DNA of 64,000 nt from Psammoneis japonica (GCA_008632985.1 QPGO01000001.1:466404-530403); one strand, 5' to 3'. Numbered from the stretch's first letter, positions 32,831 through 64,000 are shown. The notes: generated by a model from the letters alone, not told the origin. Made by a program: numbers and translations.

Positions 32831-32999
32831 CAGCATCAAATTGAAACATTGGCTGGACACAAGCCAGCTCTCAATTGACAGCTGTTTGCACAACTGAAAG
32901 ATTTTGTCAACGCGCTGGCTTGCACAGACAAACAAATCTCATCACTCTCAAGATCAGTGCCTCTTTGTGTTGTGACACAATTGTTGCAATGAAAGTGGG

Positions 33000-36660: not shown

Positions 36661-36701
36661 TCGTGTACCGCATGTTTAGCATAAAAAATAGAGCAATCAT
36701 C

Positions 36702-38684: not shown

Positions 38685-39114
38685 ACTTGTATTTGCATTT
38701 CATGATTCTGTCTCTTTCGTTAGAGTGCTCCTTCTTACTCAAGACGACCGACGCATCATCGTCATGTTTTTTGAAAAACAAAAGAGAACAACATACCATC
38801 ATACGTATCCATAAATTTGTAAAAGAAGTGTAGAACAAAAGCCACGGTCTACTACTTGATCCAGCCATCGCACTTCTTCTCCATAACCAACTCTAACTCC
38901 AACTAATTATCATTTTTTAGAATAGGTCGATTTGCTTGGACACTCCGTATGCTACAGAGAGAAATGCGGAAGAAGTGTCAAACAAAAGACAGCATCTACT
39001 ACTTGCTACTTTTGTTACAATCATGGTATATGTACGGTGTTGCAATGCCTAGTGTCGCGTTCAATCCATCGTTTCTTCTCCAACTCGCTACTACTCCAAA
39101 TATACAATTACTAC

Positions 39115-39460
39115 ACGCATTCGACTGAATGATGCCCACAATACCGGTAATTCCAAAAATACCCAACGCCGACGCAAAAATTTCCACAATTAAAATCTTG
39201 ACAAACAGACTGGCATCCTGTGCATCCGCCAAGGCACACGACGATCCGGCAATGCCGACACTGACGCCCGAGGCAATGTTGGTCAAGCCGACACTGAGTC
39301 CTGCCAAAAACATGCCATGCCCGGCACAACAATGTCCGGTCCAATCCCAATTTTCATCCAGATGACAAACGGCATCGTCCGGGGGCCTTGACCTTGTTGG
39401 CAAGAACAATGGCCATGATTGCTCCGTAAATGGCAGCGGCTTTGCAGAAAATGACACTGG
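39115..39460 (-). pseudogene. V-type ATPase 21-kDa proteolipid subunit c'' C-terminal fragment (VMA16/ATP6V0B-like), frameshifted
   Basis: [22 protein letters not shown] is followed, in another frame, by [58 protein letters not shown]. The proton-carrying Glu of IFCEA reads K, and no N-terminal half is visible. Confidence 0.85.
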
Positions 39461-39502
39461 CAGAGACACACATGCATGCAAATTTATGCACACATTCGTT
39501 TG

Positions 39503-39538: not shown

Positions 39539-41881
39539 ACAAGCACTGCACCAAGTGCAACCACACCCACCGCCTCCCACAGCTTCACATTTGATTTGCC
39601 CACACCGCAACCAGTTGCTCACAATGGCTCAACTGTCATTTCATTCTGTGACTTTCCTTTCAACTCGACATGGAATCATCATCAGCAGTGCTCCTAGACA
39701 ATGTCACCTTGTTCTGATTGGCGGCGGCGGCAGCCACACCTGTCACCTGTTGCCTCTGCTGCAATGGACGACACCATGTTGAATGTGTGGGCTGAGTGCG
39801 GTGAATGAAGCAATGAACAAGCAAACGCAAACCGCACACCACACTTCTTGGCAGACTTTGTGCAAAATCACGCGTCCGCACGACAGCTTCGTGGTTTGGC
39901 GGACGTTGCACAAAATGTCCAATGAAATGGGCAAAAATGGTGCCTTGACGTCTGTTTGACACAATGCACAATTGGCTTTACAAGTTTTCTTGATTCTTAA
40001 AGTCTGACGCACCACTGGAGTGTCACCTTTCATCATTTTGAGCCTTGTGGTTCTGCTGGCATGGCACTTGCCTCTGTCCCAAATGCCGGGCGCTCATTCT
40101 TGGAACCACATCATCACAGTTCGCTGGTGCTGGCTGAAGGGTTTTGGAGCTGACTCCACTCATTGCACCCCTGAGAATCCCAGTGCTGTTTTCTGGTGTT
40201 GGTGCTGCACAGCAGTTTTGTTGGGACACAGAAATCTTGTGACAACTGCCCATGCTTTCCAGCACACTCAAAAGCAGTTCTCCCAAGAACAAAGCACGCT
40301 CACAATCAGATGACTTTTTTGCCTCTGTCAACAGCTTGTCTGTGTGTCAGTGTGGCTTTGCTTTGTCAGCTGCAAAGAGCTGCTGAGCAGCTTGACTTTC
40401 AGTCTGAAAGGGGATGATGGAGCCTGCAGTCACTGCACAAAAGCGTGACTGGCCCCACACACAAAGCTGAGCTCTTGCATGGTGGCTGACCACAGAGTTT
40501 TGAGTGCACCTGATTTTGCCAGCCCAATGTCCAAGAGAGCAATGAGAACAAACACCAAGCTGTCCCACAGCATTGGCAGTGTTGTGTGCTCAGGGGCAGA
40601 GCTTCTCTGTGGGACTGTGTCAAATTTCTGAATGCCTCAAAAAGTGTTTGTGCCCACACTGAGAATGCTGAGAACGTGCAGGTGTCCTCTCTCACAAAAG
40701 GTGGTTGGCCAGTCAAGAATTGGCTGTTTGCACACTCCTGCCTGCCAGCAGCAGTTTGGACACTCTGCATCATTGAGTGTGGCACAATGGGGCAGCCATT
40801 GCTGTTTGAGCCGAGCAGTGCACAACAACAGTGTGGCAGAGATGCTGATGGCATTTTGTGTTGCTTTTGGGCACTGGCCCACAGTGCTCTTGATGGAGGA
40901 GCATGTGGCAACACATCACTTCAAAGCATCACAAATCCTTGAGCCAAAACTTGGTTGAAAATGAGACCCTTTGGTTTGAGCATTTCTCCCTGACTGGAGC
41001 TCAGGGGCCATTGTGTTGTTGGTCTTGTTGGAGAGTCACACACCTGCAACAAACACATTTTTTTGCAGCCCAGATTCGCCATTGGGAATGACCAAATCAA
41101 CCAACCAGTCAGCCATGGTTTTGTCTGAACATTGTTTTTCCCTTTGTGACTGTGTGGTTTGACAATGTGTCATCTGATGGTGCTGTGCCAGGCATTGTTG
41201 CACAGTGCACTGCTTTGTTTTGTTTTGCCTTTGTTTTTGTTTTTGCACTTGCAGACATTTAACTTCATGGCACAGAACCAGCATGGCCAAAAACTCTACA
41301 AACACACACCAGCTTGAGAGAGAACGTCAGCTTCAGGGAGTGGAGCAACAGAGCTCTGCTGGCCAAGCAACATGTTGTGTGTGTGGTGAAGACAAGAAAG
41401 CAACAGATGCAGCACAAAAGAATGCTGAGTCTGCTGTTGATTGGACCCTCCTCTGTCAACAATTTCTCCAACAACTGCTGTTTGGCAGTGACAGAGCCTC
41501 TCTTTTTGCTGTGGCAGAGTGTGGTGTGTGTGTGTGCACAACAAAAGCAGTGGAAGCACAGCTTTGCCTGGGCAAATGCATGAAGCCTGTCTGCCCCACA
41601 GCTGCTGCCACTTGGATCTTTTTCACAAAACAGCTTCAACCCTGTGAACATCAGCAGCCAACCACTGACAAAGCTGCCATGAAAGTCTTGCTCCTCACTT
41701 TGACTGAGGCTGGCACCGATGTGCCTGCTGTGACTGTGGTGCAGAGCTTGGACAAACATCTGAACACCGGCTGCTGCCTCAGCTGCTTGCTTGCTTTTCG
41801 TTGGTCATCATTGATGGACAATTGGCTGCACCAGTCATTCATTCATTCATTGGAGAGAGATTGCACCAATTCCATTTGTTT

Positions 41882-41884
<3 letters not shown>

Positions 41885-41914
<30 letters not shown>
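41885..41914. repeat. (AG)n microsatellite
   Basis: Direct reading. Confidence 0.95.
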
Positions 41915-41915
<1 letters not shown>

Positions 41916-42097
41916 ACAGCAGTGAAGTTGTCGCGTGCATCAATGAGAAAAGGACTCTTGCACCTTTTCTTGAGTTTGCAAGCTTGCTTGCTTGCTGTGC
42001 AGCAGATCTACAGAGGCACAACCAAGCATCACAAAAATGATCTCGGGTTTGCATTTTGCGTTGTGCAAACAACACAACAGAAGCAAAAATGAAAAAA

Positions 42098-47125: not shown

Positions 47126-47801
47126 GCTTGTTCTTGTGGGTGTGGCGTTGCATCGACATTGTTGTTGGTGGGGCCGGTGCGTTGTCTCTTTCATTCATTT
47201 CCTTCATCACATGTTTCTCTTGACCTGTTCTTGGCGGCTCTTTGGCAACAGAATGCTTCAAGGGAGAGGCGAAGCTTTGACAGCAACTTGTCGGGGAGTG
47301 TGGCTTGATTTTGGGGCGGCTTGTTTGCAAGAGAATTCCTCGTGTCACAGCTTCCACGGGAAATAAAATGCTCTTGCTGGTTTCCTCGCTGCCTGCCAAA
47401 AAAAGGTGAGATCCAAGTCTTGGGCGATGTTGCTTTGTTTTCAAACTTTTCCCACAATTTTTGTCTCGCAGACATTGCTTCCCCTTTCCTGAACATTCCT
47501 GCCAAACCACCATTGTGCGTGGCAAACATGCACTGAATGGCTCCTGCACTTGATTCTCGGTGAGTGATCTCGCAAATGGTTGATTGGAGGGCAGCCTTCA
47601 CAGTGTTCCGACAATCAACGCGTGAGATTCCCCCTTCTCGAGCATCGTGGGTGATGGATCGGCGGCACCCGTTGTTGATTTGCACGACATCTTTTGGACC
47701 GCAAACAACCAAATCTTCCGGCATTAGACGCAGCTGAAAATTCATCGTAGTGTCTGTCGATCTGCAGTGTCCGAAGTTTTAAAACTTAAAACTCTTAGTA
47801 C

Positions 47802-47825
47802 GTTTTCGCGCTTTCGCGCGAAAAC
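47802..47825. repeat. GC-rich 10-bp hairpin at an insertion boundary
   Basis: GTTTTCGCGC-TTTC-GCGCGAAAAC lies a few bases before homology to the FG-GAP upstream module resumes. Confidence 0.75.
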
Positions 47826-48003
47826 CACGATTTTTCCCCGAGTTTGCGAGCTCGCATGTCAAGACATACCAGGAGAGCTGTAGATTCTACAGAGGCATGA
47901 CCGAGCGTCGCGAAAATGATGTCGGGTTCGCATCGTTCTCATGCACACATACAGTGCAGAACAACTCGATGCTGATTTTTGTGGATTTTTCGCAGTAATC
48001 ATC

Positions 48004-49905
48004 ATGATGAATCGTCGCAGCAAGGCCGTGAAGGTGTTAGAGAAAAGGTTTGGCCGTGGTGGGAAGGGAGGCCACGAAGAAAAAGAAAAAGTGCAAGACT
48101 TGGAACAAATCCAACAACAACAAGAACAAGCAAGATCGAATAATGCGTGCGCCGCTCCCGGTGCTTCTCATGTAGACGAAGAGAATCAAGAAGAAGCAGA
48201 TGAAACTACTCCAGCATCTGCCTTTACCGGAGCTTTTGCAGTGAATCAACAAGGGATGGTCCGTCGCGACCGTGTACAAGCAAGTGGAGACATTACTAGC
48301 ATGAGCATTCTGTCTGACTTGTCGACGGTGCAATCGGATCCCATGCCCCCCCCGCCACCCGGTCGAGATGCCAGTGCACTGCTGGTCGAAGCGCATTTGG
48401 CGGAAACGACTGATGATGCGGAACGAATGGCTACACTCGAGCAAGAAAACATGCGTCTTCGCAATGAAGTTCCGCTAGCACAAGCTGAGGTTGCTCAAGA
48501 AAGTGCGACAAATAAAGGCCGTCGTCGGACATGCTTTATTGTTCTGGGAGTTTCAGCACTTCTGATCACTGTGGCGGTTGTAGTTGGAGTTTCTGTCACT
48601 GGAGACCGCGGTGCTTTTCTACCGCCAACAAACAGTCCATCAACGCTTGCGCCTACTACTGGTGATACGAGTTCCCCGCAGCCTCCAATGTGGTCGCCCA
48701 CTACTAATTGGCAACTTGTAGGGAATGTCTTGCATGGCACAACTGCTTCAGAGTTTTTCGGCACTTCAATATCCTTGTCATCAAATGGAAATACCATAGC
48801 GGTAGGAGCAACGCAAGGTACCACTCCTGGTTACGTGATGGTCCACCGATACAATCAAGCCACACAACAGTGGTCGCCCATTGGACAAGCATTGGTTGGA
48901 CAAGCCGGTGGTGACGATTTTGGCGAGTCTGTTTCGTTAAATGGTGACGGTACAATTCTTGCCATTGGAGCCAACGAAAATGATGGTGGCGGGGAAAATG
49001 CCGGTCACGTTCGTGTGTTTGAATACGACTCTGCATCGGATCGTTGGGTCCAACTCGGTAGCGATATTCTTGGACAAGACGCTGGTGATGAATTTGGTAT
49101 TTCCGTGTCGCTCTCTGATGCAGGAGATATTCTGGCCGTGGGAGCTTTTCGGGATGACACCAATGGTGAGCGTTCAGGGTCTGTTCGATTGTTTCAATAT
49201 AACCGTGACACTTCATCCTGGAACCAACTTGGCCAGACACTATTTGGTCAAGCTAGTGGTGATTTTTTTGGGTTCTCGGTCTCCTTGAGTCGGTTGGGAA
49301 CTATAGTTGCCGTTGGAGCAGAGGGGAATGATTCCGGTGGTGGCAATGTTGGTCAAGTCTCGGTATATGAATACAATTCTTCGTCTTTGAAGTTTTATCC
49401 ATTGGGCAATCCAATCAACGGAGGTAACCATAGTACATATTTGGGTAGTTCTGTATGCCTCGATGACAGTGGATTGGTCATGGCTGTGGGTGCACCATCA
49501 TGGAACAATGAAGACGAAAGAGTTGTCGTCTTCGTCCACGACCGTTCGACGTCGACATGGAATCAACGAGGTCAAATTTACTCATCATTTCTTCAACAAG
49601 ATCTTTTTGGCCACCCTGTTTCTTTGAGTGGAAATGGGAATATATTGGCTGCTGGAACTCAGTTGTCGTATGGCACCGAAGATGGAAACTATCTAGTGGG
49701 TCAAGTTTTGATATTTCAATACAACAGCTCCGCAGATGACTGGATTCAATTCGGCAATCCTTTAAGCAGCGGGGATATTGAAGATAGCTTTGGACAATCC
49801 ATTTCATTGTCGGCCGATGGAAGCATCGTTGGAATTGGTGCGAGGTGGGCTGATGTCAATAGTGTTGGTTCAGGATCCGCATATGTATTTACATCGAACA
49901 ATTAG
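48004..49905 (+). CDS. Type II membrane FG-GAP beta-propeller protein, copy 4 (intact)
   Basis: MMNRRSK starts at 48004, within ORF 47941-49905. The architecture matches copy 1, with seven blades. Confidence 0.9.
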   Translation: MMNRRSKAVKVLEKRFGRGGKGGHEEKEKVQDLEQIQQQQEQARSNNACAAPGASHVDEENQEEADETTPASAFTGAFAVNQQGMVRRDRVQASGDITSMSILSDLSTVQSDPMPPPPPGRDASALLVEAHLAETTDDAERMATLEQENMRLRNEVPLAQAEVAQESATNKGRRRTCFIVLGVSALLITVAVVVGVSVTGDRGAFLPPTNSPSTLAPTTGDTSSPQPPMWSPTTNWQLVGNVLHGTTASEFFGTSISLSSNGNTIAVGATQGTTPGYVMVHRYNQATQQWSPIGQALVGQAGGDDFGESVSLNGDGTILAIGANENDGGGENAGHVRVFEYDSASDRWVQLGSDILGQDAGDEFGISVSLSDAGDILAVGAFRDDTNGERSGSVRLFQYNRDTSSWNQLGQTLFGQASGDFFGFSVSLSRLGTIVAVGAEGNDSGGGNVGQVSVYEYNSSSLKFYPLGNPINGGNHSTYLGSSVCLDDSGLVMAVGAPSWNNEDERVVVFVHDRSTSTWNQRGQIYSSFLQQDLFGHPVSLSGNGNILAAGTQLSYGTEDGNYLVGQVLIFQYNSSADDWIQFGNPLSSGDIEDSFGQSISLSADGSIVGIGARWADVNSVGSGSAYVFTSNN

Positions 49906-50145
49906 ATTCGTATCAAGTTCGAATCTTTCAAATCAACAGCTACACGACCAAATGGAATCATTTTGGTGATCCTTTAAGTGGCGAGTCTGAATATGGTCAT
50001 TTGGATATTCCCTTTCCTTCTCGGCAGACGGAAGCGTGTTGGAGTTGGTGCGATTCATGCTGACATCAATGGTGAATTTTCCGGATCCGTTTACATCGAA
50101 CAATTAGATTTGTATTTGCATTTCATTATTTTGTCTCTTTCGTTG
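49906..50145 (+). pseudogene. Extra degenerate last propeller blade plus 3' flank
   Basis: CAAGTTCGAATCTTTCAA...GGTGATCCTTTAAGTGGCGAG...GGCAGACGGAAGC...ACATCGAACAATTAG repeats the gene end, with indels. Confidence 0.85.
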
Positions 50146-52799
50146 ATCATGTTTGTTGAAAAGTCAAAGACAGCAGCAGTTTTTTAATAGAGAGAAATAC
50201 AAAAGAAGTGTGTGGCAAAAGGCAACGTCTAACACTTGTCATATACGTGTGCCGGCAGTGGTGTTCAATCCTCTCGGAGGAGTCACCGCATGACAGTGGC
50301 ATGCAGCAGAAGGCAGACAGATGACAGACAAGAACAATGAGAGGCCACCCCAGTTCCCCTCATTGTGCTTGGCGGATCACCAGTGACAATGGGATCAGTT
50401 GCATTGACCTGACATGTTCCTGCAATGCTGAAAATTCCCACCTGTCCCAGCCCTCTGTTTCACACAGTGTTGGGGAACAAAATGGAAGGAACCAGATCCA
50501 CAGATTTGTTCCTGTTTTCCAGCTGCTGTCTCAGCAGCACCACACAAACACATGCACTTGTGTGTTTTTCCACATGTTGGATGTGTTCATGTGCTGATTT
50601 TGCAGCTGGTCACTGTGAAATGTCATCGGGGTTGTAGTCAAGCCAAGGCAGTGGCGGGGAATCTGTGATTCCGAGGTCTTTGAGTGCTTCATTTTTGCTT
50701 CAGATGAGCATTTGTTGCAAATTTTGCGATTCGGCAGCAAACAGGTGTCAGGAACAAACAGGCACATCAGATGAAGCATGGACCAACCACAAAAAGCAAG
50801 GGAACTTTCTCGCAAGTTCTTCCGTGCAAGACAAGCAGGTGACAGACAGACAAATGTGATGGAAGAGTCATTCATCAACCAATTTTTGTGAGACAAAAAA
50901 CATCAGATGCGTCACATGGTGAGCGACAAGCACAGATGTGCACCCACATTGACCCTGGATGCATGTGGTTGATTTCAGGGCATCATTGCTGCTGGCTGAT
51001 TGGAGCTGTTGGATGGACACCAGCGAGCCCAACATTGCATCAGCTGCACTTGTCATGTTTGTGTTGTTGCTGCTGCATGCCTGAAATTAGAGCAGATGAT
51101 GTTTTTATCCCCACATGGTTGCCGTTGTTGCTTGTCATGTTGTGTCACATTTTTGTGCATCTCTGTTGTGTTTTTGTGTGTCTCAGTTGCATTTTTTCAT
51201 TCAACTCAATCCTTTTTTGAAATTGTGCGCAATGGACAGCTTGCCAAGTTCATTTTTGGCATGTCAGCATGAAGTTGTGCAGATCTGCACACACAAGTTT
51301 CTGTGTGCATTTGCAGTGAAGCAGCAGTTGGACCCATCAGCTCATTCAATTTGTGCAGCAACCCACCTTGCATGCCACACTCACAGTGGTGATGACATGC
51401 AACGGCGTTGTTTGTGCTCTGACGTGACCTTGCCACATCACATCTCCCTCGCCATGGAGTTTTAGAATGTCGCTGACAATTGTCTCAAGATGATGGCCAG
51501 TTGTGACTGAGTGCTGGGGGTTTTGCTTCACCATGAAAGGATGCTGTTAAACCCATCAACATGAAGTGCAATGGCACTGGTGTTGGAACAGTGACAATGC
51601 ATTCCCCTTGGCATCATCAAGATGCTGGCATGCAGTGTGGAAGACTCAGCAGTTCTCAATGTAGCGGCACGAGACAGTGGAGTTGGCTGGGAGCCCAAGG
51701 AGCACTTGTCCTGAATGTGTTTCTGTGGATGCAAGAACCGCAAATGATGTGTTGGCCACATTGGAAGTTGCAGAGAGCATTGGTGGAATTGAACACAGCG
51801 ACTTGGCAGAGAAGTTTTCAGCAATGTTGGTGAGGAAGTTGGGTGTGGCAGTCATTTGAGAATGATTCAAAGTGGGTGATGCAGGCAACCCAACAACATG
51901 CAAACAGCTGTGCAGTCTGTTGAAGCTTCTGACCAGCTTTGAAGGCAATTTGTTTTGTCTGTTGATGGACCAACCATCTGTGTGTCATGTGACAACAATG
52001 TTTTGGCATTTTGCACTTTGCATTCATGCCAGCAGTGTTTTGGCAATGACGTTTGCTCTCTTGCAACCTCTTGCTTCATGCCACATGTTGTTCTTGTGTT
52101 GGAGCTTGCAGAAATTGTGATTTTTGTGTGCATGTGTGAGAAACTGTTGCACGCAGAAACACATTGAATTTCCACTGGCACACCAAAAATGAAACTCGGC
52201 AAGCTGTCCATTCCCAAATGGTTGGTTTGCCAGTCAGCAAAACACCAGGAAACAGTGTCTGACTCCTGCTCATTCTTTTTGTGGCAGCTGACATCACCTC
52301 CTGCATCTTTTGCAAAGAACCCATAAAAAAATGGTTGCACTCCACCTGGAAACAGAAAATTGATGCAACAGCAGCATCACACCAACTGGGTGTTGGAATG
52401 ATGTGATGCCAATGATGGCAGCAGCACAAGAAGACATCTGCAGTGCATGAGCTGGGTGCCCAATTGCACAAAGAGTGTGGTTGCACATTCTGTGGGCACA
52501 TGCATTGCAAAATGTGACACCAGTCTTTTTTTGTGTCAAACGCAATTGTCGGCCATCAGGAAGTGCTGAAGCAGACCCAACATTGCTCCTTTCCAAAGCC
52601 AAGATTGAAGCACCTGCTGAAGCAACACTTTCTTTCACAATTGCAAGAGCTTTGTTCTCTGCATGTTGAAAAGGATGGGGTTGATGGGGTCAATGAGTCG
52701 TTTGACAACAAGCGACAAGAGAGAGTCACCTTTCCAACTCTTTTGCCAGATTCACTTGACAGAGTGCTCCATCCATTGTTCTAACTTTGATTTGAAGGA

Positions 52800-53050
52800 C
52801 AGAGCCAGATCTTTTCCATGTCCTTGTCAGCAGATGGAAGCACTGCAGGAGAGGCATCAATGGCAAGGAAAACAGTTGGGATGTGTGCACCCGCATTTTA
52901 TGATTTTGTCTCTTTCACAAAAAAACCAATTTGTGCAATGGAGTCATGCAGAGTTCTCCTTCTCACTCAAGATGACTGGCACACAATCATCATGTTTGTT
53001 GTTGAATTTCAGAAGACAGTGACATGGCATCACATGTCCACCATGTGGAG
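52800..53050 (+). pseudogene. Relic of an FG-GAP gene 3' end and 3' flank
   Basis: TGTCCTTGTCAGCAGATGGAAGCA...ATGATTTTGTCTCTTTCA...CTCCTTCTCACTCAAGATGAC matches 38580-38760. Confidence 0.7.
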
Positions 53051-53924
53051 AAGTGCAGAGATTGAGTGTGGCTTGAACTCAACACCAACCATCCTGAAAA
53101 TGAGAGAGGAGCCACTTTTGGCTCACACAGGGCTTGGATGGTGTCATCTGCAATGTGCTGAGAAGCTGGCATCATTCTTCCACCTGAGAGATCAATGGTG
53201 CAAGTGCTGCAGTCAAGCAAACTTGTTGCAGAATGGAGCTTTTGAATTGACTGGAATGTGAAATGTGAAGATCAATGGTTGGATCAAGAAGGGGCTGCTT
53301 GATGTTCCATTGAACAGAGCCCAGTTGGAGAGGATCTGTTGCTTGCAGCATGTGGAACATTTCATGGAGAACATGTGAGGAATGACTGGCTTGTTCAACA
53401 ACATGATTGACTTCTCTGACAAGGAATGAGATGCAGGTCTGCACTGATGCAATCTTGAGGATGTCAGCACTGAGACAACAGGATTTGCTGATGTTGGTCT
53501 GGTTGCTGTGCCCAAGGGGGCGGTGTTCCCCAGCGCTGTTGACCCCAATTTTTAGAAACATGGATGTGAGTGGCAGGATTGTGTTGGAGCATCTAGATTT
53601 GGGGCATTGCAAGAGGCATTGACACGTTGAAGAAAAGATGCATGACTCCTGATGTGGCCTGAAGAACGGTTCTTTGGGTGGAGAATCTCACTGCCATCAA
53701 TCATTTGCCTTTGATTTTCATCTCACTCTTTGGAGCAAATTGTTTGGTGTGTCTGTTGGCATCACTGGGGGCCTGTTGCACACAATGTTTCAGCTCCCAT
53801 GTTAACTGGCTGTTTGGCAACCCACAGCCACCACATTCAGCACCAAGGTGAGTGCAACCAGTGTCACAGGCAGGAACAAGCCTGACAGGATTCCATCCAT
53901 CACATTTCTTCTCCATCATCAACT

Positions 53925-54130
53925 CTCTCTGAATGATTTTGACAATGATTTCAAGAATCCCCAACACCGAGACAAAGATTTCCACAAACAAAATCTTGAC
54001 AAATGCAGACAACAATTTCAAGAATCCCAACGTCTCAAGGCAAAGATTTCCACAATGAAAATGTTGAAAACTGCAGACTGTGGCTTGCATTCTGATCATC
54101 TGCCTCCAAGGCACACAATGATCTGGCAAA
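53925..54130 (-). pseudogene. Relic of the V-ATPase c'' fragment (partly duplicated)
   Basis: Translates FVKILFVEIFVSVLGILEIIVKIIQ. AAGATTTCCACAA occurs twice. Confidence 0.65.
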
Positions 54131-54250
54131 GCCAACAATGCAATGCCCGGTGCTTGCACACGCAATCATGAAAAAGAGAATGACAACAATTCCGTGTGCA
54201 ATCATCTGATGACAACAACTGCCACGCTGCATTGTGCCACACATTTTTCT

Positions 54251-54252
<2 letters not shown>

Positions 54253-54332
<80 letters not shown>
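54253..54332. repeat. Compound (TG)n(AG)n microsatellite
   Basis: Direct reading. Confidence 0.95.
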
Positions 54333-54333
<1 letters not shown>

Positions 54334-54776
54334 ACAATGGATTTGAAAATCGATTGATCGAGTCCGCCAGTCAGTCTTCTGCTTGGACATTTTTAACACA
54401 GCGACAACCTCGCCACACACATTGACAACAGCAGCCAGCTGCTGAAAAAGCCACTGCAAAAGTCTTGCTCCTGACTTCAGCCAACATTGTTGTGCTCACT
54501 GTTTGTCAAATGATTGGACCAACATCGGAGCTGGCAGCTCCACCTTGGCTGCTTTTGCTGGCGTGTTTGCCACATTTGACGGAAAATCAGCTGTGCTGAT
54601 TTTGTCGTTTGCTCCAGAGAGAGAGAGAGAGAGAGAGTGAGTGAATGAAAGAGAGAGACAGAGAGCACAGCTTTCAGATTTAAAAAAAAATTCTCGCAAC
54701 AATGCCAAGCTGTGGGAAGGGGGTGGGGGAGCGGCGGTGGCAATTTGGGGACAATGTGCACAGCAATGACATGTCG

Positions 54777-55052
54777 TGACAGGATTTGAACAGGATTCAG
54801 GTGCGCGCGAAACATCGCGCGCTGTTTAGTTTACCGTGCACAGTTTTGTGTGCTTTGGTTCCGCGCGGTCGCGCGCGATGTAGTTTGCTTTCGAGCCACA
54901 AGGCTCACAAGAATAACAACAGTGGCCCGATCACACCGACTCACACGTCTTTCGGCTCCTGTGATGGTCTCTGAGCGGAGACTCATCTGCCATTTAGACA
55001 GCAGCAAGGAGTCATTGTTTGAATTCTTGCCATTTGCCTTCAATTTCTGTCA
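54777..55052 (+). repeat. 5' LTR
   Basis: TGACAGGATTTGAACAGG...CAATTTCTGTCA, with terminal inverted TGACAG/CTGTCA. Confidence 0.97.
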
Positions 55053-55653
55053 GATTGACAGTCTTGCTCATTGTCAACCCATTGAGCAACCGCCATCGTC
55101 GTCGTTGATTTACCGATGATGCCATCTCAATTCTGCGTGGACCTCCGTGTGTGTTCTACGTGCATCGGCAAGTCCACGCGCATTCAATGCCAGGGCATCG
55201 GCAGGAAGTTAACGTCACCGTCAAGTCTCCTTGCCGCTGGACATCTGGATTGATCACATTGCCTTTGATCGCTGAAGACATGCATTCAACGGTCATGTCC
55301 AAGTCCATCCTTGATCCTCATCCCTTGATGTGCCCATTCAATGGTTGACGGTCAAGAACCCTGCATGTTCAAGGATCTCCGTCGCTGAAGACACACATGC
55401 GCTGCTCCGCTCGCAAGCAACCCAAAGCACCACCAGCTGCGGGTTCGGACGTGCCGGCACAACTCTACGGACCGGATGGGAAGTTTAGCACTTGACAACG
55501 AACGGGACAGCACAGCCCGGCGACTTCTGATTTTAAGGTGGTTCAAGATTTCAAGTCAAGTCTGTTTCAAGTCAAGTCCATCCTCACCCAAGTTTCAAGT
55601 CTGCCTTCGCTTCCCAACAAGAATTGCTTGTCCTGACACCACTTTTGTCCACC

Positions 55654-58600
55654 ATGGTTCTCACTCGTCAGCAACAAACCGATGGTTTCGAGCACGTTGT
55701 TGGAACCGTGCTTGCCCAAGGTGCTGGGAGCCCTCTTCGTTTGGCTTTGACCCAAGACGGCACGGACTCGTGTCAAGAACTGTTCATGTTCATGCTGTCC
55801 CAAATCAACTCGCTTGAGCACGACAACGGCACCAATGTGATCCCTTTGCCCCGCGGTTGTAAGAACATGTTAGCAGCTCCAATTGGTCTGCACATTGTCA
55901 AAGCACACGAAGGTCTTGACGTTGCCAATGACTCCTCGTTGTTCACGCATGACGAGTTCCTTGCCTGCCGCCTCAGCCCCGACTGCATGTCTTCTGTGTC
56001 CGTCGGCAGCTCACCCCTCACACCTCTGCATGTCACCAACCCGACCAAGGCACGCGACCCGGTGCGAGACTTCAAGTGAGGCATCAAGCATGACCCCGCC
56101 GCTTTCACGGCTCTCAAATCCGACAAGCAGTGGCACACTTGGCACACCTCACTTGTGGCACAAGCCCGTGCCCAAGACGTCGAGTGCATTCTAGACTCGT
56201 CGTACAAACCGACCAGCCCCGAAGACAAACTGCTCTTTGCTGAACAGCAAAAGCACATGTTCGCCATCTTCGAATGCATTCTTCTCACCGACAAGGGCAA
56301 GGCTCTCATTCGCGAAAATGTGGGGTCTTCTGACGCCCAGACCGTCTGCCGCGCCTTGTCTGAGCATGCGCTCGCCTCCACCCGCGCATCTGTCGAGTCC
56401 TCCACCTTGCTCACTTGCCTTGCCACCACACGTCTTGGTGATGGCACTTGGAAAGGTCCGACCCACGGGTTCATCCTCCATTGGCAAGATCAGTTGCGCA
56501 AGCACGAGGCACTCATCCCGGCCAGTGACCACTTCTCTGAAGGACAGAAGCGCGTCATGCTCGAGAATGCCGCACACCCTGTCAAGGAACTCCGTGCTGT
56601 CAAGAACCAAGCTGATCAGCATCGCACGCAGAGTGGCAAGAGCCTCACATGCGATCAATGCTGTGGCTTGCTCCTCTCCGCAGCGGCTCAATGCGACAGC
56701 GCATTTCAACCCAAGACGACACCTCGAGCCACCCGACGTGCCACACACGCACACGACGTTCACTCCGAGGAACCGTCCGACGATGTGTTCTGTGACATTG
56801 ACAGCGACATTGACGTCCTTCAGGCCAATGCTGCCTGCACCCGTGGTCCCAGCCTCACCGGTGACCAATGGAAATGTCTCCCCCCCGACCACCAATGGAT
56901 TTGTGATTCGTTGCCCCATTCCTCCAAGGCAATCATCCTGGAGCATTCTCGTCCGCCTCCCCATGACCCGCGAGACAGCAACTGCCATGAGTCCGTTACG
57001 GTCAACCTTCACGACCAACGCCTTGGGAGTGACGGTGATGTCAACTTGTCCAACACGACTCCTGCTGACTCTGGTGACCCCGCTCCAAATGTGGGTGCCA
57101 CTTCGGATGATCCCATCCTGGCACACCTCACCAAGCACAAGCCACTGCCACCCGGTGATCTGCAACGTCTGTTGTCTCCTAACCAAGCCCCCAACACCAG
57201 TCGACCGGGGCCATCCGCCACTCCCTCCACTCCGCCAGCTCCTGCCGATGACACAGAACTTGACGGCCGCACTTGCCGCCGCGTTGACAACCACAATGTC
57301 ATTTGCTCTGCCTCTGCTCATCGCTCCACACGCACTGGTGCTCCAGTCGATTGTGGGGCCAATGGCGGCATTGCTGGCGACGACGTTCGCGTCATTGCAC
57401 GCACCTCTCGCCAAGTCGACGTTCAGGGCATTGACGACCATCAATTGGTGGACATCCCCATTGTCACCGCTGGTGCCGTCATTGAGACCCAGCGTGGTCC
57501 CGTCATCGCCATCCTTCATCAGCACGCATGCACAGGCAAGGGCAAGACCATTCATTCCTGCGGCCAACTCGAGTGGCACAAACAGGATGTCAACGATCGC
57601 TCTGTCAAGGTGCCCAACGGCTTGCAACGCATTGCCACTCCTGATGGCCATGTCATCCACATTGACATCAAGGGCGGCTTGCCTTGTGTTGCCATGCGAC
57701 CTCACACTGACGCCGAATGGGACACCCTGCCCCATGTCATCCTCACCGGTGATGACACATGGGATCCTTCCATCCTCGATCACTCTGTCACTGACGACGA
57801 CCAGTGGTGCGACGCGATCTCTGACCCACAGGACGATCCCACTGCCAACCCATTTGACGAATGCGGCAACTGCCGTCATCGTGTCGTTGTCAACAAGACC
57901 ATCATGTCCACTTCCTTGTCTGCCGATCACGCGTCCGCCCTCGATGATCACCTCATTCCGAACAACGACGTGTTCTGCGAGTGTCATCCACACGCGATTG
58001 ACCCCAAGGACGACGACGTTCCGCCCCCGGAGCGCACTGTGCAGCCCAAGGACCCCCCCTTCGAGTCTCTTCGGCCTTGCTTTGGCTTCCTCCCTGCCGA
58101 TGCGGTCCATCGCACTTTTGTCTGCACCACGCAGTGCATCCGCATGCCCGCCGGTGCACACCTTGGGAAGGCCCACAAATCACCCAACCCCGCCCTTAAT
58201 GTGCACCGCCGCAATGAGCCCATCGCCACTGACACCGTTCATGCCGACACCCCGGCCATCGACTCTGGTTGCACCAGCGCCCAACTGTTTGTTGGCACCG
58301 AGTCTACCGTCACTGACGTCTGCGGCACCAAGATGGACAAAGAGTTTGCCAACACACTCGAGGATCAGATCCGGGAGCGCGGTGCCCCATCCAAACTCAT
58401 TGGCGACCGTGCTCAAGTTGAAATCAGCAACAAGGTGCTCGGGATCCTACGAGCCCTCTTCATCTCCAGCTGGCAAAGTGAGCCTCACCAGCAACACCAA
58501 AACTTTGCCAAGCGTCGACACCAGACTGTGAAGCGCATGGCGAACACTGTCATGGATCGTTTTGGTTCGCCCGCCCACACATGGCTGCTGGCGCTCATGT

Positions 58601-61323
58601 GTGTGTGCTTCATGCTCAACCACACAGCATCCCCACGTCTCCACTGGCGCACGCCCCTCGAGACTCTCACTGGCTCCACCCCAGACATCAGCCCATTGCT
58701 TCGCTTTCACTGGTGGGAACCCGTGTGCTTCCACCTCGATGACTCCGATTGGCTGTCCGAATCCCGTGAGTTGCGTGGACGCTTTGTTGGCATTGCTGAG
58801 CACGTCGGCCACCAGATGACCTTCAAGATTCTCTCTGACGAGACTCAAAAGATCCTCTGCCGGTCCAACGTACGCTCCGCTGCCACCGATCCTGCCGCTC
58901 GAAACCTGCGTCTTGATCCTCCTGATGGGGAGCCACCTGAACCCATCATCAAATCTTGCCATGACGACAACCCCGTTGATTCTCCTGATGGGGAGATCAG
59001 GACACCCAAGATGCCAGTTTTCGATCCGCAAGACATCATCGGATGCACCTTCCTCATGCAGCCACAAGAGGACGGACAACGCCACAGAGCTCGCATCGTC
59101 AAGGCCGTCGAAGACCATGAATGGAAAGTGAATGGCAATCCCGAGCTCACCAAGTTTGTCTGCTCTGTCAACAACGATGAATGCGAGGAAGTCCTTGCCC
59201 ACAACGACATCATGAATCACATTGAGCAAGAAGACGAAGACACCACTGTTTGGAAATTTCGACGCATCGTGTCACACGAAGGACCTCTGAAGCCTCATGA
59301 CCCAACCTGGAAAGGCTCAAGCTACAACATCATGCTTGAATGGGAAAGTGGGGAGATCACGTCCAAGCCTCTTGCCATCATCGCCAAGGACGACCCCGTC
59401 ACCTGCGCCATCCATGCACGAGAGAACGGACTTCTCGACACTGATGGCTGGAAGCGGTTCCGCACCATCGCGAGGTGCCAAAAGAAGCTGTTTCGCGTGG
59501 CCAACCAAGCCAAGCTTTGCTCCTTCCACACTGCACCTCGAGGCAAGTACGGATGCGAAGATCCCCGGAACTGCAAACACACCATGTCACCAGACGAACG
59601 CAATGGCAACCGCAAATGGGGAGATGCAACTAATCTCAAGATGGACCAACTCGAGGAATGCGAAGTCTTCCATGACTGCGGGCCCTTCGAGTCTTCCACT
59701 CCTCCTGCGGGACACAAGAAGATCCGAGTGCACCCAGCGCACGACGTGAAACACAACGGTCGCCACAAGGCACGACTCGCAGCCGATGGGCACCTCATGG
59801 ATGCACCTGTCGACAGTGTCTGCTCCGGAGCAGTCTCCCTCCGTGGCCTTCGGCTGATGATTTTCCTGGCTGAACTCAACGAGTTGGAGACATGGGCCAC
59901 CAACATTGGCAATGCCCACCTTGAAGCCACCACCAAGGAGAAGCTCTACATTGCAGCCGGACCCGAATTTGGCAAACTCGAAGGACACATCCTTGTCATC
60001 CACAAGGCCCTGTGTGGACTCCGCAGCTCTGGTCTCCGCTGGCACGAGCGCTTCGCCGACTGCCTGCAAGCTGAAGGATTCTTCCCCTGTCACGCCAAAC
60101 CCGACATTTGGATGCGCAGGAACGGCAACCACTGTGAACACATTGCCATTTATGTGGATGACCTCGCCATTGCCATGAAGGACCCTCAATCTTTCGTCGA
60201 CACTCTCACAAAAAAGCACAAGTTCAAGCTCAAGGGTGCGGGGCCCATTGAGTTCCATCTGGGTTGCGACTTTTCCCGGGATCCCGACGGAACCTTTTGC
60301 CTGTCTCCGCGCAAGTGCATCGAGCGCATGGTCGACAGCCACGCCCGACTGTTTGGGGAGAAACCCACCACCAACGCCCTGTCACCTCTGGAGAAGGGTG
60401 ACCACCCCGAACTGGACACTTCCGAACTGCTGGGGCCCGATGGCATTCACAAGTTCCAGTCTCTTGTTGGTTCACTCCAATGGGCAGTGTCCCTTGGTCG
60501 AATTGACATCACCACAGCCATCATGTCACTCTCTAGTTTCTGAGCTGCACCCCGTCAAGGCCACTTGGATCATGCCAAACGCGTCTGTGGGTGCCTCTCC
60601 AAGATGCGACACGGCACTCTCCGTGTTCGCACGGAAGAGCCCGACTGTTCGGATCTCCCTGCCCCGGCCTGTGAATGGATGCATTCCATGTACGGCGAAG
60701 CAGAAGAGATGATCCCAAAGGACGCTCCACCGCCCCTTGGCAAGTTCGTCACCACCACCCACTGCGTCGATGCAAACTTGCACCATTGCATGCTCACCGG
60801 ACGCTCTGTCATGGGAATGCTCCACTTCCTCAACAAATTCCCGGCTGACTGGTTCTCCAAGAAGCAAGCCACCATGGAGACTGCGACCTGCGGGTCTGAA
60901 TTTGTTGCCGCAAGGACTTGTGTTGAGCAGATTGTTGACCTGCGCATCACCCTGCGCCACCTTGGCGTCCCGACCCGCAATGTCAGTTGCATGTTCGGTG
61001 ACAACAAGTCGGTTGTAGACAGTGCCACCATCCCGCACTCCAAGTTACACAAGCGACACACCGCACTGTCGTTCCACCGTGTGCGTGAGGCAATTGCCTC
61101 TGGTTGCCTTGAGCTCCACTTCATCGAAGGCTCCCGCAACCCTGCTGACATTCTCAGCAAGCATTGGGGTCACTCCCAAATCTGGGACCTTCTCCGCCCC
61201 CTCATGTTCTGGAACTTCATTCCATCCAAAGTCGAATCTGTTTCTGTGGCTCCTCGAGCAAACTGGGGAGTGACAGGATTTGAACAGGATTCAGGTGCGC
61301 GCGAAACATCGCGCGCTGTTTAG
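55654..61323 (+). pseudogene. Copia gag-pol polyprotein with two in-frame TGA stops
   Basis: Single frame with stops at 56077 (FK*GIK) and 60541 (SF*AAP), both explicable as CGA->TGA. Motifs are protease VDCGANGG, integrase TDTVH...SEPHQQHQN, RT KARL...YVDDL and RNase H VDAN...GSEFVAA...NPADILSK. Confidence 0.93.
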
Positions 61324-61546
61324 TTCACTGTGCACAGTTTTGTGTGCTTTAGTTCCGCGCGTTCGCGCGCGATGCAGTTTGCTTTCGAGCCACAAGGCTC
61401 ACAAGAACAACAACAGCAGCCCGATCACACTGACTTGCATGTCTTTCGGCTCCTGTGATGGTCTCTGAGCGGAGACTCATCTGCCATTTAGACAGCAGTG
61501 AGGAGTTGTTGTTTGAATTCTTGCCATTTGCCTTCAATTTCTGTCA
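61271..61546 (+). repeat. 3' LTR
   Basis: Collinear with the 5' LTR and the same length. Confidence 0.97.
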
Positions 61547-61950
61547 TGTCGAAGCATGAAGGCAAATGAACGTCATCTGGCTCAAGCTCTTGAACAGAGC
61601 CCTGTTGCACTGGACTTGGCAGGTGGGTTTTGATGCACAAGCCAAGTCAGAGCTCAAAGCAAAGGCCTCTTGTTGAGGCGCACCCAAACCGTGGTGAGGT
61701 GCGAGGGCGCGCAGAAGGAGTGCCTTGCCAAACCTGAGAGCCACGCAGTCAAAGCAGTCTTCAACACAATTTTTTTCTTTTCTGCACTGAAGACAACTGC
61801 ACTTTTGCTTCCTTCGAGGTGAAAAAAGCAGCTCTGCCAGCTAGAGAGTGCAGTGGAGAGAGACAGGATCCACAGCAGCCCAGTTCGTCACCCACATGAA
61901 ACGATGAGGCTGCCATGAGCTTAGAACAGGCCGCTTGCGCTTTTTTCTGG
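61547..61950 (+). repeat. Upstream module of the FG-GAP unit (continues from 54737-54776; not followed by the gene)
   Basis: Matches 36110-36580 and 28925-29330 up to GCGCTTTTTTC, then homology stops. Confidence 0.88.
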
Positions 61951-62222
61951 AATAGATTTGGCAACTTTCAGAAGAAGTAACCCGAAAGTTCTCTGAAAGT
62001 TGATGCAAATATAACATCACATGTCTGCACACACACATGACCTTGAAACGCGCCAGAATTTTTACATCATCAGATTCACCACCACCCGCAAGACTTCTGC
62101 GACACCGTGCTAAAGTTCGAGACTAGAGACACGGCACGGAGGAGACATCGTCTCACAAAAAAGCAGACGCAGCCACACAGCTGTCACAGAAGCCACCCGC
62201 AACAACAGAGCAGCCGTGCAGC

Positions 62223-64000
62223 ATGCCCACTTCGACCCTTGAGGCGCCAATCATGAAGGCGTCTAGGGCCCCTTCTACCACAAGTGGCGACAAGTCTGCA
62301 ATCAAAACGTTTGACGCGTTTCAAGACAAAAAACAAGACAAGCCGTTTCACGGATTGGAGGAACGTCATGTGGATGGATGCCACCTCAGGACACTTGTGA
62401 TGCGCTTCAGCAAGTTCTTGTCGGATGAGCCCATCTGTCGGTATGACAATCCCTCCAACGGGCTAGCAGGAATTGACGGAAAGCAGCGAATTTTTGGAAA
62501 GGTCAAAGAAGCGCTAAAAATGAAGTTCCCCAAGCACCCTGACTGGGAAGACGAGGACAAGTGGCACAAGCCTCTGTTCAAAGATGTGGCAAAGGCCACT
62601 GATAAAGCCAACCTCCTTAGCATGGAGTGTTCTGACAAAAGGACTTTGCCCCTGGTTCCAAACGTGTCTTCAGAATGTGTTCGAGCCAAGCAGCGAAATG
62701 CTGTTCTTACGTCTGACAGAAATTCAATGTTGAGACGCGAGAACGGTGCATTCGCAAACGACATCGAGACGTTGCTTCTTGCTCTTGTTCTGCAATGCAA
62801 TTATCCAATGATGAACAATGGCCCTCTTCAGCAGCGTTGCTGGATTTTGATGGGTGCCATGGCTGCTGGACGTGGAGGGGAAGTGAGGCATCAACGGCAC
62901 GATGAATGGTTCTGGGATTTATTTTATGAGAATTTGGAAGCAACGTGGTGTGAGCCGAAGACTGTGGATTTGTGTGGACTCCTCTTCCCACCAAACAAAA
63001 AGTCTCATCTCTTTGATCTCTACCATGCTTTCGCGTGTTTCTATTCTTGTGAGAAAGGTCTCTATCGTCCAGACAGCATGGAGAAGGAGCTCCACAAGCA
63101 CACTTTTCCAGACTTGTGGAGCGTGAGCGACAAGTGTGTTGCCGCTAAGTTGACGTCTATTGTTCGAAGCAAGGTCAACCCGGTTCTACAGAACGATCAT
63201 TCTTCTAAGTCCATTCGAGTTGGCATGGCTACATTCTTGAATTCGCATCGAGGAGTGTCAGTTGAAGAAGCGGACGCTCGAGTTGGATGGGCGCCCGGAG
63301 CTGCCAATGGCAAGACTTACAAACGAATTACACCGCAGCTCACTCTTCCAGCGGCAAACGCGATGATGGGCTGGGATGACACTGCCGGCAAGAAATTTGC
63401 TCCAAACTTGGAATGCCTTGGGAGCCATGTGCAAGATGATGTTGAACGTCTCATTGAAAAATTGCACATGATCTCTGACTCTCTTGCTCAATTTCTGAAA
63501 GGAGGGGAGCTGCGTCCCTTCTTGCGTTCTTGCACGGCTAGTGTGATTCGGCATCACGCTGAAGTTTCGAAGGAGCTTCGTCAAAACCATCAAATCGTGT
63601 ACACGTTGGAGCGTGCTGCAGCAGAAGCGAAGATTCGTGATGGTGACACGGCTGACACCTCACAAGTGCTTCGGATCTGGGGAAAGAAAATAGACGCTAG
63701 CTTTCAAGACCGCAACCCGGATCTTTCAAGTGACATCAACCTTGCTTTACAGATAAAGCAGCAGAATGAGCTATTGTCTCGTGCATTGTCAGTGTGTGAT
63801 GCACAACGTACCGAGCTTTCCGAGCAAGCCCACGCGATTCGCAACTTGGAGATGGCTCAGCTTGAGGCCAATCAGTCCAGTAAGAAAAGGAACATTGAAC
63901 TCCTATCATCGGAGGAGGAAGATGGCACGACGGATTTTGCGGACGAAAAAATATCCAATCGAGACGGCGGCATCGAGTGCAACGTCATTGATGAAAACGC
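62223..64000 (+). CDS. Tyrosine recombinase, Crypton-like (open to the window end; absent from the ORF track because no stop is reached)
   Basis: My translation from ATG 62223 is open to 64000. It gives MAAGRGGE (Arg, ~62871), WCEPKT (Lys), SSKSIRVG (~63201-63224), ARVGW and GKTY (Tyr, 63318), the R-K-xxR-W-Y catalytic set of tyrosine recombinases. Confidence 0.82.
   Translation, partial: MPTSTLEAPIMKASRAPSTTSGDKSAIKTFDAFQDKKQDKPFHGLEERHVDGCHLRTLVMRFSKFLSDEPICRYDNPSNGLAGIDGKQRIFGKVKEALKMKFPKHPDWEDEDKWHKPLFKDVAKATDKANLLSMECSDKRTLPLVPNVSSECVRAKQRNAVLTSDRNSMLRRENGAFANDIETLLLALVLQCNYPMMNNGPLQQRCWILMGAMAAGRGGEVRHQRHDEWFWDLFYENLEATWCEPKTVDLCGLLFPPNKKSHLFDLYHAFACFYSCEKGLYRPDSMEKELHKHTFPDLWSVSDKCVAAKLTSIVRSKVNPVLQNDHSSKSIRVGMATFLNSHRGVSVEEADARVGWAPGAANGKTYKRITPQLTLPAANAMMGWDDTAGKKFAPNLECLGSHVQDDVERLIEKLHMISDSLAQFLKGGELRPFLRSCTASVIRHHAEVSKELRQNHQIVYTLERAAAEAKIRDGDTADTSQVLRIWGKKIDASFQDRNPDLSSDINLALQIKQQNELLSRALSVCDAQRTELSEQAHAIRNLEMAQLEANQSSKKRNIELLSSEEEDGTTDFADEKISNRDGGIECNVIDEN

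Follow-up and report, generated by a model that had tools for sequence, protein, structure and literature searches.

What kind of process leaves the two long terminal repeats (LTRs) of one retrotransposon differing almost exclusively by transitions, several of them paired into reciprocal TG/CA doublets? The question is raised by a Ty1/Copia-type LTR retrotransposon at positions 54777-61546 of a 64,000-nucleotide stretch of DNA from Psammoneis japonica (GCA_008632985.1, QPGO01000001.1:466404-530403), the whole of which is called the window below. The initial annotation of this DNA took the LTR pair as the record of a double-stranded chromosomal process acting after insertion and left open whether the ancestral dinucleotide at the reciprocal sites had been TA or CG. 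Three independent lines of sequence comparison (conserved proteins, other copies of the family and the LTR pair itself) now settle TA as the ancestral state and CA/TG as the derived one. We consider it highly probable that the underlying process acts after insertion, on chromosomal DNA and symmetrically on both strands, converting TpA to CpA or TpG in non-genic DNA while sparing genes.

Results

Spectrum of changes between the two LTRs

A repeat search of positions 53500-63000 returned a single long direct-repeat pair (54776-55052 and 61270-61546; 94% identical, 6494 bp apart). The search, an alignment and a script place the 5' LTR at 54777-55052 (plus strand; 276 bp, bounded by TG...CA, with four (CG)3-4 runs and five remaining TpA) and the 3' LTR at 61271-61546 (plus strand; 276 bp, three remaining TpA). 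Both copies start with TGACAGGA and finish with TTCTGTCA. Alignment and script agree on 16 differing nucleotides spread over 12 sites. Three of these are TA/CA (LTR positions 56, 105 and 138), one is TG/TA (position 81), three are CG/TG (59, 161 and 170) and four are reciprocal TG/CA doublets (147-148, 166-167, 229-230 and 237-238); the remaining site, position 92, holds the sole transversion, G/T. The four reciprocal sites correspond in the window to TG at 54923-54924 versus CA at 61417-61418 (site 1), CA at 54942-54943 versus TG at 61436-61437 (site 2), CA at 55005-55006 versus TG at 61499-61500 (site 3) and CA at 55013-55014 versus TG at 61507-61508 (site 4), the last three as located by the script. 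The 12 differing sites listed by the initial annotation for two 276-bp LTRs are thus reproduced, as are all of its classes (three TA/CA, one TA/TG, three CG/TG, four reciprocal TG/CA and one transversion), and both examples that it quoted, ACAGTGGCC/ACAGCAGCC and GAGTCATTG/GAGTTGTTG, occur in the LTR pair.

Each of the 15 transitions falls within a pyrimidine-purine (YpR) step, a category that covers 144 of the 276 LTR positions. With an even spread of changes, this would be expected with a probability of 5.8e-5, or 7.8e-4 if each doublet is counted as a single event; outside YpR steps, there is one difference in 132 positions. Metagenomic relatives of the element (79 loci with 42-68% amino-acid identity) belong to another family when judged by their DNA and were used solely as controls for composition and for LTR pairs. 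Thirteen terminal-repeat pairs were available in 34 metagenomic loci of at least 6 kb, from which seven short repeats (123-137 bp, 96-100% identity) and three repeats longer than 1 kb that are not LTR pairs (L008, L012 and L030) were set aside. The three pairs retained, from L001, L023 and L075, carry 0, 1 and 0 TG/CA doublets, respectively, with 16-20 substitutions each.

Direction of change

The distribution of YpR classes across the LTR pair (CA/CA 22, TG/TG 20, CG/CG 17, CA/TG 4, CA/TA 3, CG/TG 3, TA/TA 2 and TA/TG 1) bears directly on the identity of the ancestral dinucleotide. If p is the chance that an ancestral TA is converted in a given LTR, with CA and TG as equally frequent products, the two intact, four single and four reciprocal sites give p = 0.70 and fit the model (P = 0.2). 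The equivalent model with CG ancestors, applied to 17 intact, three single and four reciprocal sites, has its best value at q = 0.25 with P = 8e-5, and omitting the 13 CpGs located in (CG)n runs raises P only to 0.024; the log-likelihood advantage of TA over CG ancestors amounts to 6.8-10.7. Under the TA model, the ancestral LTR would have held about 13 TpA, an observed/expected ratio of about 0.68, in agreement with the center of the 79 metagenomic loci, which lies near 0.66 by reading of the sorted list (range, 0.31-1.09). The per-site conversion probability per LTR is about 0.08 for CpG versus 0.70 for TpA, and CpG decay is a slower second component of the spectrum. The proposal that each reciprocal TG/CA pair reflects a palindromic ancestor hit on opposite strands is therefore borne out by the fit of the TA model and the failure of CG ancestors, as well as by the TA state of site 1 in other copies (see below), and the choice between TA and CG is resolved as TA.

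The four (CG)3-4 runs of each LTR form two near-palindromes (54804-54822 and 54862-54878, with equivalent places in the 3' LTR). All 13 CpGs inside these runs are intact in both LTRs, and of the seven isolated CpGs, three have been altered in one LTR or the other (Fisher P = 0.037). These runs could lack methylation, be protected by their structure or have a function.

Conserved proteins provide the second line of evidence. The gag-pol frame of the element (55654-61323, plus strand) starts at an ATG at 55654 and runs for 1889 codons with no frameshift to a TAG within the 3' LTR (61321-61323). Relatives of 1850-1900 amino acids align with it over the entire length, and the open reading frame (ORF) 56155-60543 matches Pfam RVT_2 (PF07727) with E = 1.1e-20 and 74.7 bits against a cut-off of 31.6. 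Relatives of the element ORF include more than 1000 metagenome-derived polyproteins of about 1850-1900 amino acids and 55-67% identity, all listed with PF07727. The Pfam scan of this copy called no integrase or protease domain, and placement of the integrase rests on the end-to-end alignment. With its paired LTRs, target-site duplication and reverse transcriptase, the element is a Ty1/Copia-type LTR retrotransposon.

We compared this frame with 32 related polyproteins (48-58% identical), a conserved column being one with the same residue in at least 80% of them. Among 716 conserved columns, 617 are identical in this copy and 99 are changed. Conserved Tyr is the residue most visibly affected: of 36 such columns, only 5 still read Tyr, with 16 changed to Cys (TAY>TGY), 12 to His (TAY>CAY) and 3 to Phe, and the Tyr share of the element protein is 0.34%, compared with a mean of 3.78% and a minimum of 3.25% in the relatives. 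The 54 conserved Arg columns read Arg in 46 cases, Cys in 4, His in 2, and Thr and a stop in 1 each. A single TA>CA/TG step accounts for 38 of the 99 changed columns and a single CG>CA/TG step for 24; the remainder comprises 7 other transitions, 15 transversions and 15 columns needing at least two changes. The transversion and multiple-change columns probably represent family divergence, given that the outgroup proteins are only 48-58% identical. On the sense strand, A>G (Tyr>Cys) and T>C (Tyr>His) changes are balanced (16 versus 12; binomial P = 0.57), and each LTR likewise carries both CA and TG product types.

The frame of what is now a dead element is interrupted by two in-frame stops, both TGA. 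The first (56077-56079, plus strand) lies in gag, where other copies of the family all read C at 56077 (26850.1 of 26850.1 depth; see below for the scope of these comparisons), and the second (60541-60543, plus strand) replaces an Arg present in at least 80% of the 32 relatives. Judged from these comparisons, both look like products of CpG decay.

The third line comes from other copies of the family, retrieved as Logan contigs from one sample (coded runs X1-X4) and placed on the window at 80% likeness or higher. In X1, 12,666 pieces fall on the element, and the summed contig depth is 4e4-1.8e5 over the element versus 100-125 over its flanks; the family is highly repeated in the sample, contig depth giving no copy number. 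Differences from these copies were classified by context in the best 40 of 585 rows, to which all results from other copies refer; 32 of the 40 lie inside the element. At 19 of these 32 differences, this copy has CA or TG where others have TA, and the reverse situation (TA here, CA/TG in others) was found at none of the 32. One of the 19, position 55434, forms a complete CA/TG flip together with 55435. Six further differences have TG/CA here where others have CG, one has CG here where others have CA, and six are other changes. The share of TA among the other copies ranges from 0.13 to 1.0, a spread expected if the copies were hit independently of one another. At reciprocal site 1, about half of the family depth reads TA: 54924 is G>A in other copies at 24729.8 of 46714.3 depth (53%; 39 contigs) and 54923 has no row among the best 40, from which it follows that other copies read TA there. 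Position 54932 is part of a CA in both LTRs, and 51% of the depth reads T; it is a candidate for a hidden double hit in the same direction.

These results bear on the view that turns the polarity around, namely, that ordinary CpG decay together with C>T change of the repeat-induced point mutation (RIP) type produced the spectrum, the reciprocal sites having been CG and the TA/CA and TA/TG sites CA/TG. CpG decay is certainly real here, as documented by the three clean CG/TG sites in the LTRs, by 24 of the 99 changed columns and both TGA stops in the body, and by older depleted compartments of the window with a CpG observed/expected ratio of 0-0.3. As the source of the whole spectrum it is nonetheless exceedingly improbable: four reciprocal double hits are unexpected beside 17 intact and three single CpG sites, RIP makes TpA and the element body has a TpA ratio of only 0.085, 28 of 36 conserved Tyr have become Cys or His, and the 19-to-0 asymmetry against the other copies runs in the opposite sense. 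The condition under which the initial annotation would have given up its interpretation, CG at all reciprocal sites with CA/TG as the older state at the TA sites, runs counter to the available evidence, in which one of the four reciprocal sites is polarized directly.

Timing of the changes and age of the insertion

The element is flanked by an intact 5-bp target-site duplication, TGTCG, identified by alignment and script at 54772-54776 and 61547-61551. Two paralogous gene units in the window (28900-29460 and 36085-36640) align over the insertion point, and each contains the unoccupied site once, reading TGTCC and TGTCA. The empty site in both units implies a single insertion event, later than the gene duplications, and the differences between the LTRs together with the intact duplication mean that the changes postdate insertion, as had been claimed from the LTR pair. 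A chimeric origin of the LTR pair from two elements is excluded by the intact duplication and the empty paralogous sites. No further copy of the element was found within the window, where blastn returned only its own LTR pair, and patterns derived from the LTRs had 0 matches in the metagenome_contigs, genome_contigs and viral_contigs collections.

By the Kimura two-parameter measure, the LTRs are 0.061 apart when all sites are counted and 0.0076 apart when YpR steps are excluded, the latter value resting on one transversion. Standard LTR dating would thus overstate the age of this insertion about eight-fold, with wide uncertainty, in line with the earlier expectation of an overestimate. The same comparison suggests that the TpA rate exceeds the background by about 100-fold or more, a figure that rests on the single background event (1 in 132 non-YpR positions).

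Composition across the window

Over the whole window, the observed/expected ratios are 0.19 for TpA, 0.62 for CpG, 1.55 for CpA and 1.57 for TpG. The element has a TpA ratio of 0.10 (0.085 in its body) and a CpG ratio of 0.85. None of the 79 metagenomic Copia loci has a TpA ratio below 0.31, so the effect belongs to the host rather than to the element family. In 500-bp bins, the window is a mosaic of islands with TpA of 0.4-0.7 and CpG of about 0.8-1.2 (1001-2500, 5501-6000, 9501-12500, 14001-16500, 29001-32000, 36501-39500, 47501-50500 and 62001-64000) in DNA where TpA is mostly 0-0.15, and bins with TpA below 0.2 total 43,500 of the 64,000 bases. The borders of the islands are steps: TpA changes from 0.04 to 0.72 at 9500, from 0.62 to 0.07 at 12500 and from 0.53 to 0.09 at 39500. 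Islands coincide with long ATG-started ORFs and extend a few hundred bases past each of them.

A genome-wide, untargeted TpA>CpA/TpG bias, with TpA in genes retained by selection alone, would be compatible with the large fraction of the window in depleted bins and with the somewhat low TpA of host ORFs. In five of these ORFs, however, TpA is as frequent at the synonymous-prone codon positions 2-3 and 3-1 (0.47 and 0.48) as at positions 1-2 (0.42), and NTA codons are in normal use (ATA for 20 of 133 Ile, GTA for 34 of 242 Val), which argues that genes are spared and not merely under amino-acid selection. Non-coding flanks of the ORFs also keep their TpA (0.72 at 9501-10000; 0.53-0.60 at 38501-39500), and the island borders are not gradients. 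We therefore regard an untargeted bias as unlikely.

The DNA outside host ORFs and the element (45,744 bases) has ratios of 0.133 for TpA, 0.505 for CpG, 1.63 for CpA and 1.66 for TpG. Within depleted DNA, CpG varies from 0 to 0.96 while TpA stays below 0.2, and older compartments have CpG of 0-0.3; CpG being variable where TpA is uniformly low, loss of TpA saturates long before loss of CpG. The Copia element is a young member of this depleted compartment. Its upstream flank (50501-54776; low-copy, TpA 0-0.2, CpG 0-0.9 and mostly below 0.4) is an older depleted compartment that received the element. The portion at 54001-54776 is low-copy by contig depth yet depleted in TpA, so sequence repetition is not needed, unlike in RIP. 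Repeats outside the element carry the same signature: the pair 26615-26844 and 32867-33096 has 3 TG/CA doublets in 22 substitutions, and at 841-1438, a tandem repeat with units of about 182 bp, whose copies are 88% identical, has 49 substitutions, including 6 TG/CA doublets and 6 TA/CA-or-TG differences.

The same observations speak to editing before integration, either ADAR-type A>I change on RNA or deamination of single-stranded cDNA by an APOBEC3-like enzyme. In the retroviral replication scheme, differing LTRs could in principle arise if deamination took place once plus-strand strong-stop DNA had been made. ADAR favors U before the edited A, according to a recent mutation-accumulation study (Mettrop et al., bioRxiv 10.64898/2026.01.13.699255). 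Editing of this kind would mark one strand, whereas both product kinds are found in each LTR and the 16-versus-12 balance in the body is even; moreover, low-copy flanks and all inter-island DNA are equally depleted with sharp borders, and the non-element repeats carry the same doublets. Pre-integration editing is consequently as remote an explanation as CpG decay with RIP-type change. The arguments of the initial annotation against RNA editing or reverse transcription errors, and for a double-stranded chromosomal process, hold up in light of the differing LTRs, the equal hits on both strands, the two product types in each LTR and the TpA-poor low-copy flanks.

Modified motifs cause systematic long-read miscalls, and heavy TpA modification in silent DNA could make long-read callers write CA or TG. 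Such an artefact of assembly or base calling would suit a compartment pattern generated by chromatin-linked modification. Systematic miscalls should nevertheless match in identical LTR contexts, and the LTRs differ reciprocally. The mean length of X1 contigs is about 214 bases (657,387 records, 140.7 million letters), suggestive of an assembly from short reads, and at one and the same site, some copies among them show TA and others CA/TG, with shares of 0.13-0.97. Further, X1 contains 51% of the sampled 31-mers of the stretch, and one of its contigs matches 54500-54804 with 0 differences. An artefact is therefore very unlikely, more so than an untargeted bias.

Flanking-base preference of TpA loss

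Comparing surviving TpA in depleted bins (176) with those in island bins (623) by symmetrized tetranucleotide shows a dependence on neighboring bases. ATAT is absent from depleted bins and present 57 times in islands, followed by ATAC (1 versus 90), ATAG (3 versus 58), GTAC (6 versus 36), ATAA (23 versus 85), GTAA (29 versus 86), CTAG (11 versus 30), CTAC (35 versus 86), CTAA (40 versus 58) and TTAA (28 versus 37). Loss is most complete for TA followed by T and least complete for TA followed by A. The two TpA that the LTRs still share and the one surviving in the 3' LTR alone are all in TTTAG, of the CTAA class, in agreement with the preference across the window.

Neighboring genes and other features

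Island genes comprise a single gene of sulfatase/DUF229-like type and a family of tandemly arranged genes that contain FG-GAP_2 repeats. Three of the 13 matches to the sulfatase-like gene are named homologues, from Skeletonema menzelii, Ditylum brightwellii and Skeletonema marinoi (33-35% identity), all of them diatoms, on which a tentative assignment of the host to diatoms is based; no host protein of the window has a match above 43% identity in the collection searched, which includes NCBI and UniRef. The FG-GAP_2 paralogues (14799-16655, 29441-31425, 36960-38684 and 47941-49905) form a same-strand tandem array of intron-less genes with 71-83% DNA identity, whose upstream homology is also found at 61546-61947; the copy at 29441-31425 is split into two ORFs. 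A search with the FG-GAP gene returned mostly bacterial repeat proteins. The best named protein matches of these paralogues are secreted proteins of Flavobacteriia and other Bacteroidota (about 35-42% identity), and the array may be an expanded gene family of bacterial origin.

Downstream of the element, the gene island 62001-64000 (plus strand) contains ORF 62223-63998, open at the window end, with TpA of 0.21-0.36. This is below the 0.4-0.7 of other islands, and the ORF has no Pfam family at cut-off; its low TpA could stem from leakage from the inserted element or from decay of the gene.

Two other regions, 18501-26000 and 6001-9500, have TpA of 0.0-0.14 and CpG of 0.32-0.96, the same "young" profile as the Copia element; no family was recognized in them, and they may be other recent insertions. 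Depleted DNA also contains long ORFs (up to 767 amino acids) on both strands and in overlapping frames, as at 56191-58176 (minus), 56237-58531 (plus), 21653-23956 (minus) and 7220-9511 (plus), for which Pfam searches found no family at the curated cut-off with E up to 1. The simplest explanation for these ORFs is that TAA and TAG are nearly absent there.

Among related metagenomic Copia loci from other environments (L039, L023, L004, L015, L076 and L055), some have very low CpG, of 0.05-0.24 with TpA of 0.49-0.70, the profile of ordinary methylation decay. L039, with the lowest TpA of all these loci (0.31) and CpG of 0.76, might derive from a host in which the process operates more weakly.

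Discussion

The sequence of events that we propose would begin with the insertion of a Ty1/Copia-type element upstream of a host gene. TpA would then have been converted to CpA or TpG, i.e., by A:T to G:C transitions at TpA only and on both strands, at some 70-85% of the TpA sites of the element. Conversion in one LTR would have been independent of that in the other, and a site struck on opposite strands in the two would have become a reciprocal TG/CA doublet. Since the CA/TG product is no longer a target, double changes from TA to CG are not the rule. CpG decay would have proceeded alongside at about one-tenth of the per-site probability of TpA, producing the two in-frame TGA stops, with almost no other change. 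The process would act on all DNA outside gene islands in the window, genes and their short flanks being spared, and it appears to be aimed at silent or foreign DNA in the manner of a genome defense. TpA specificity, the A:T>G:C direction, action on both strands and after insertion, the compartment pattern and the flank hierarchy are features of the data; behind them we infer an enzyme acting on chromosomal DNA and directed by chromatin state.

The leading candidate for this enzyme would be a DNA adenine deaminase that converts adenine to inosine in a 5'-TA context. TadA and ADAT2 act on A34 of tRNA, which follows U33, and early TadA-derived base editors favored a pyrimidine before the target A. 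Thymine modification at TpA would be an alternative. TpA being palindromic, sequence data alone do not separate the A-side from the T-side route. The flank order sets a hierarchy that any candidate enzyme must reproduce.

Several points weigh against this interpretation. CpG decay contributes to the spectrum, which, unlike that of Bigelowiella natans, is therefore not confined to TpA. Direct evidence from other copies covers only one of the four reciprocal LTR sites, the polarity of sites 2-4 coming from the LTR model and from analogy with the element body. Runs X1-X4 all derive from one sample, possibly the source sample of the window itself, and so do not confirm the assembly independently. 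Among the 37 changed protein columns that are not single TA or CG steps, some probably reflect family divergence, the outgroups being so distant. ORFs 6985-9511, 18493-25654 and 41205-42092 of the depleted compartment have no Pfam match at the curated cut-off with E up to 1. Lastly, the TpA ratio of host genes, about 0.45, is lower than that of many eukaryotic coding sequences, and some untargeted pressure is possible.

The closest known system is that of the chlorarachniophyte B. natans, as described by Mettrop et al. (bioRxiv 10.64898/2026.01.13.699255). In its mutation-accumulation lines, two integrated viral regions received 231 of the 302 nuclear point mutations; 230 of these 231 were A>G or T>C, and the authors place all 230 on TpA, at a rate of about 6e-7 versus a background of 3.5e-10, about 1000 times higher. 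Coding sequences low in TpA were enriched in reverse transcriptase and DDE domains, and an ADAT2-like DNA adenine deaminase was proposed as a candidate. The terms LTR and retrotransposon have 0 occurrences in the whole text of that study. The two systems share A:T>G:C transitions only on TpA, giving TpG or CpA depending on the strand; a long-term footprint of TpA depletion with gain of CpA and TpG; and confinement to particular regions with the rest spared, seen here in one 64-kb window. Non-host DNA is hit orders of magnitude above background in B. natans, for which we have an indirect ratio only. They differ in host, B. natans belonging to Rhizaria and the named homologues of one host gene here being all from diatoms, and in extent. 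B. natans has two active viral regions, a hypermutable giant-virus region with a Rho_TpA of 0.45 and only 124 short depleted clusters reported, while here depletion is near-saturating (0-0.15) over about two-thirds of the window and is documented on an LTR retrotransposon. CpG decay accompanies TpA loss only in the present case.

RIP in ascomycete fungi is likewise a post-integration, DNA-level process of dinucleotide-specific transitions on both strands that inactivates transposons. RIP, as characterized in the RIPCAL report (PMC2621366), consists of C:G>T:A changes mostly at CpA, creates TpA and stop codons and lowers GC. Here, TpA is destroyed and TAA and TAG are removed, leaving a frame of 1889 codons open save for two CpG-derived TGA, and low-copy flanks are hit although RIP requires duplicated sequence. 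Hyperediting by APOBEC3 or ADAR resembles the present process as a deaminase-driven, context-specific source of transitions that disables retroelements; it acts on single-stranded cDNA or RNA before integration and on one strand, unlike the post-insertion, strand-symmetric changes seen here. Decay of 5-methylcytosine at CpG is a secondary component in the same compartments (3 LTR sites, 24 columns and 2 stops) and does not explain TpA loss, given the per-site probabilities of 0.08 versus 0.70 per LTR. Finally, 5-hydroxymethyluracil is found on the transposons of a dinoflagellate. It prefers TA and TC according to earlier work on Crypthecodinium cohnii, and a study of Breviolum minutum found no strong sequence preference; no mutational consequence of the base is described in the sections considered (PMC11572971, PMC11071213). 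As an enzymatic thymine modification on transposable elements, it could provide a T-side route from TpA to CpA.

Full-text literature searches, including a diatom-specific one, retrieved no other report of TpA>CpA/TpG hypermutation, the other matches being RIP papers, which describe the opposite direction. The locus is the second instance of TpA-directed hypermutation of non-genic DNA, here saturating, and probably the first in a stramenopile. Taking all lines together, we tentatively put forward, as a possibility slightly less likely than not, that a diatom-like alga runs an enzymatic, chromatin-directed TpA-to-CpA/TpG editing of non-genic DNA at about 100-1000 times the background. Such editing would mirror fungal RIP, inactivating transposons by missense changes (Tyr to Cys or His) without stops and raising GC, and the flank order (ATAT > ATAC, ATAG > GTAC, ATAA > ... 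> CTAA, TTAA) would be the fingerprint of the enzyme.

These findings have consequences for the reading of such genomes. The LTR pair acts as an internal clock that places the process after integration and on both strands, beyond the reach of mutation-accumulation work. Dating by LTR divergence is inflated, and TpA changes would hold no timing information at all should the process come in episodes, as it does in the B. natans lines. Transposon proteins are disfigured by TpA conversion, and loss of TAA and TAG yields long spurious ORFs on both strands that mislead gene finders. The sharp borders between spared gene islands and edited DNA point to an address at the chromatin level; like the flank hierarchy, they add to what mutation-accumulation work was able to provide. 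If the process holds true both in Rhizaria and in probable Stramenopila, two distant lineages of the stramenopile-alveolate-rhizarian (SAR) group, TpA editing would be an old or a repeatedly evolved defense of eukaryotic genomes.

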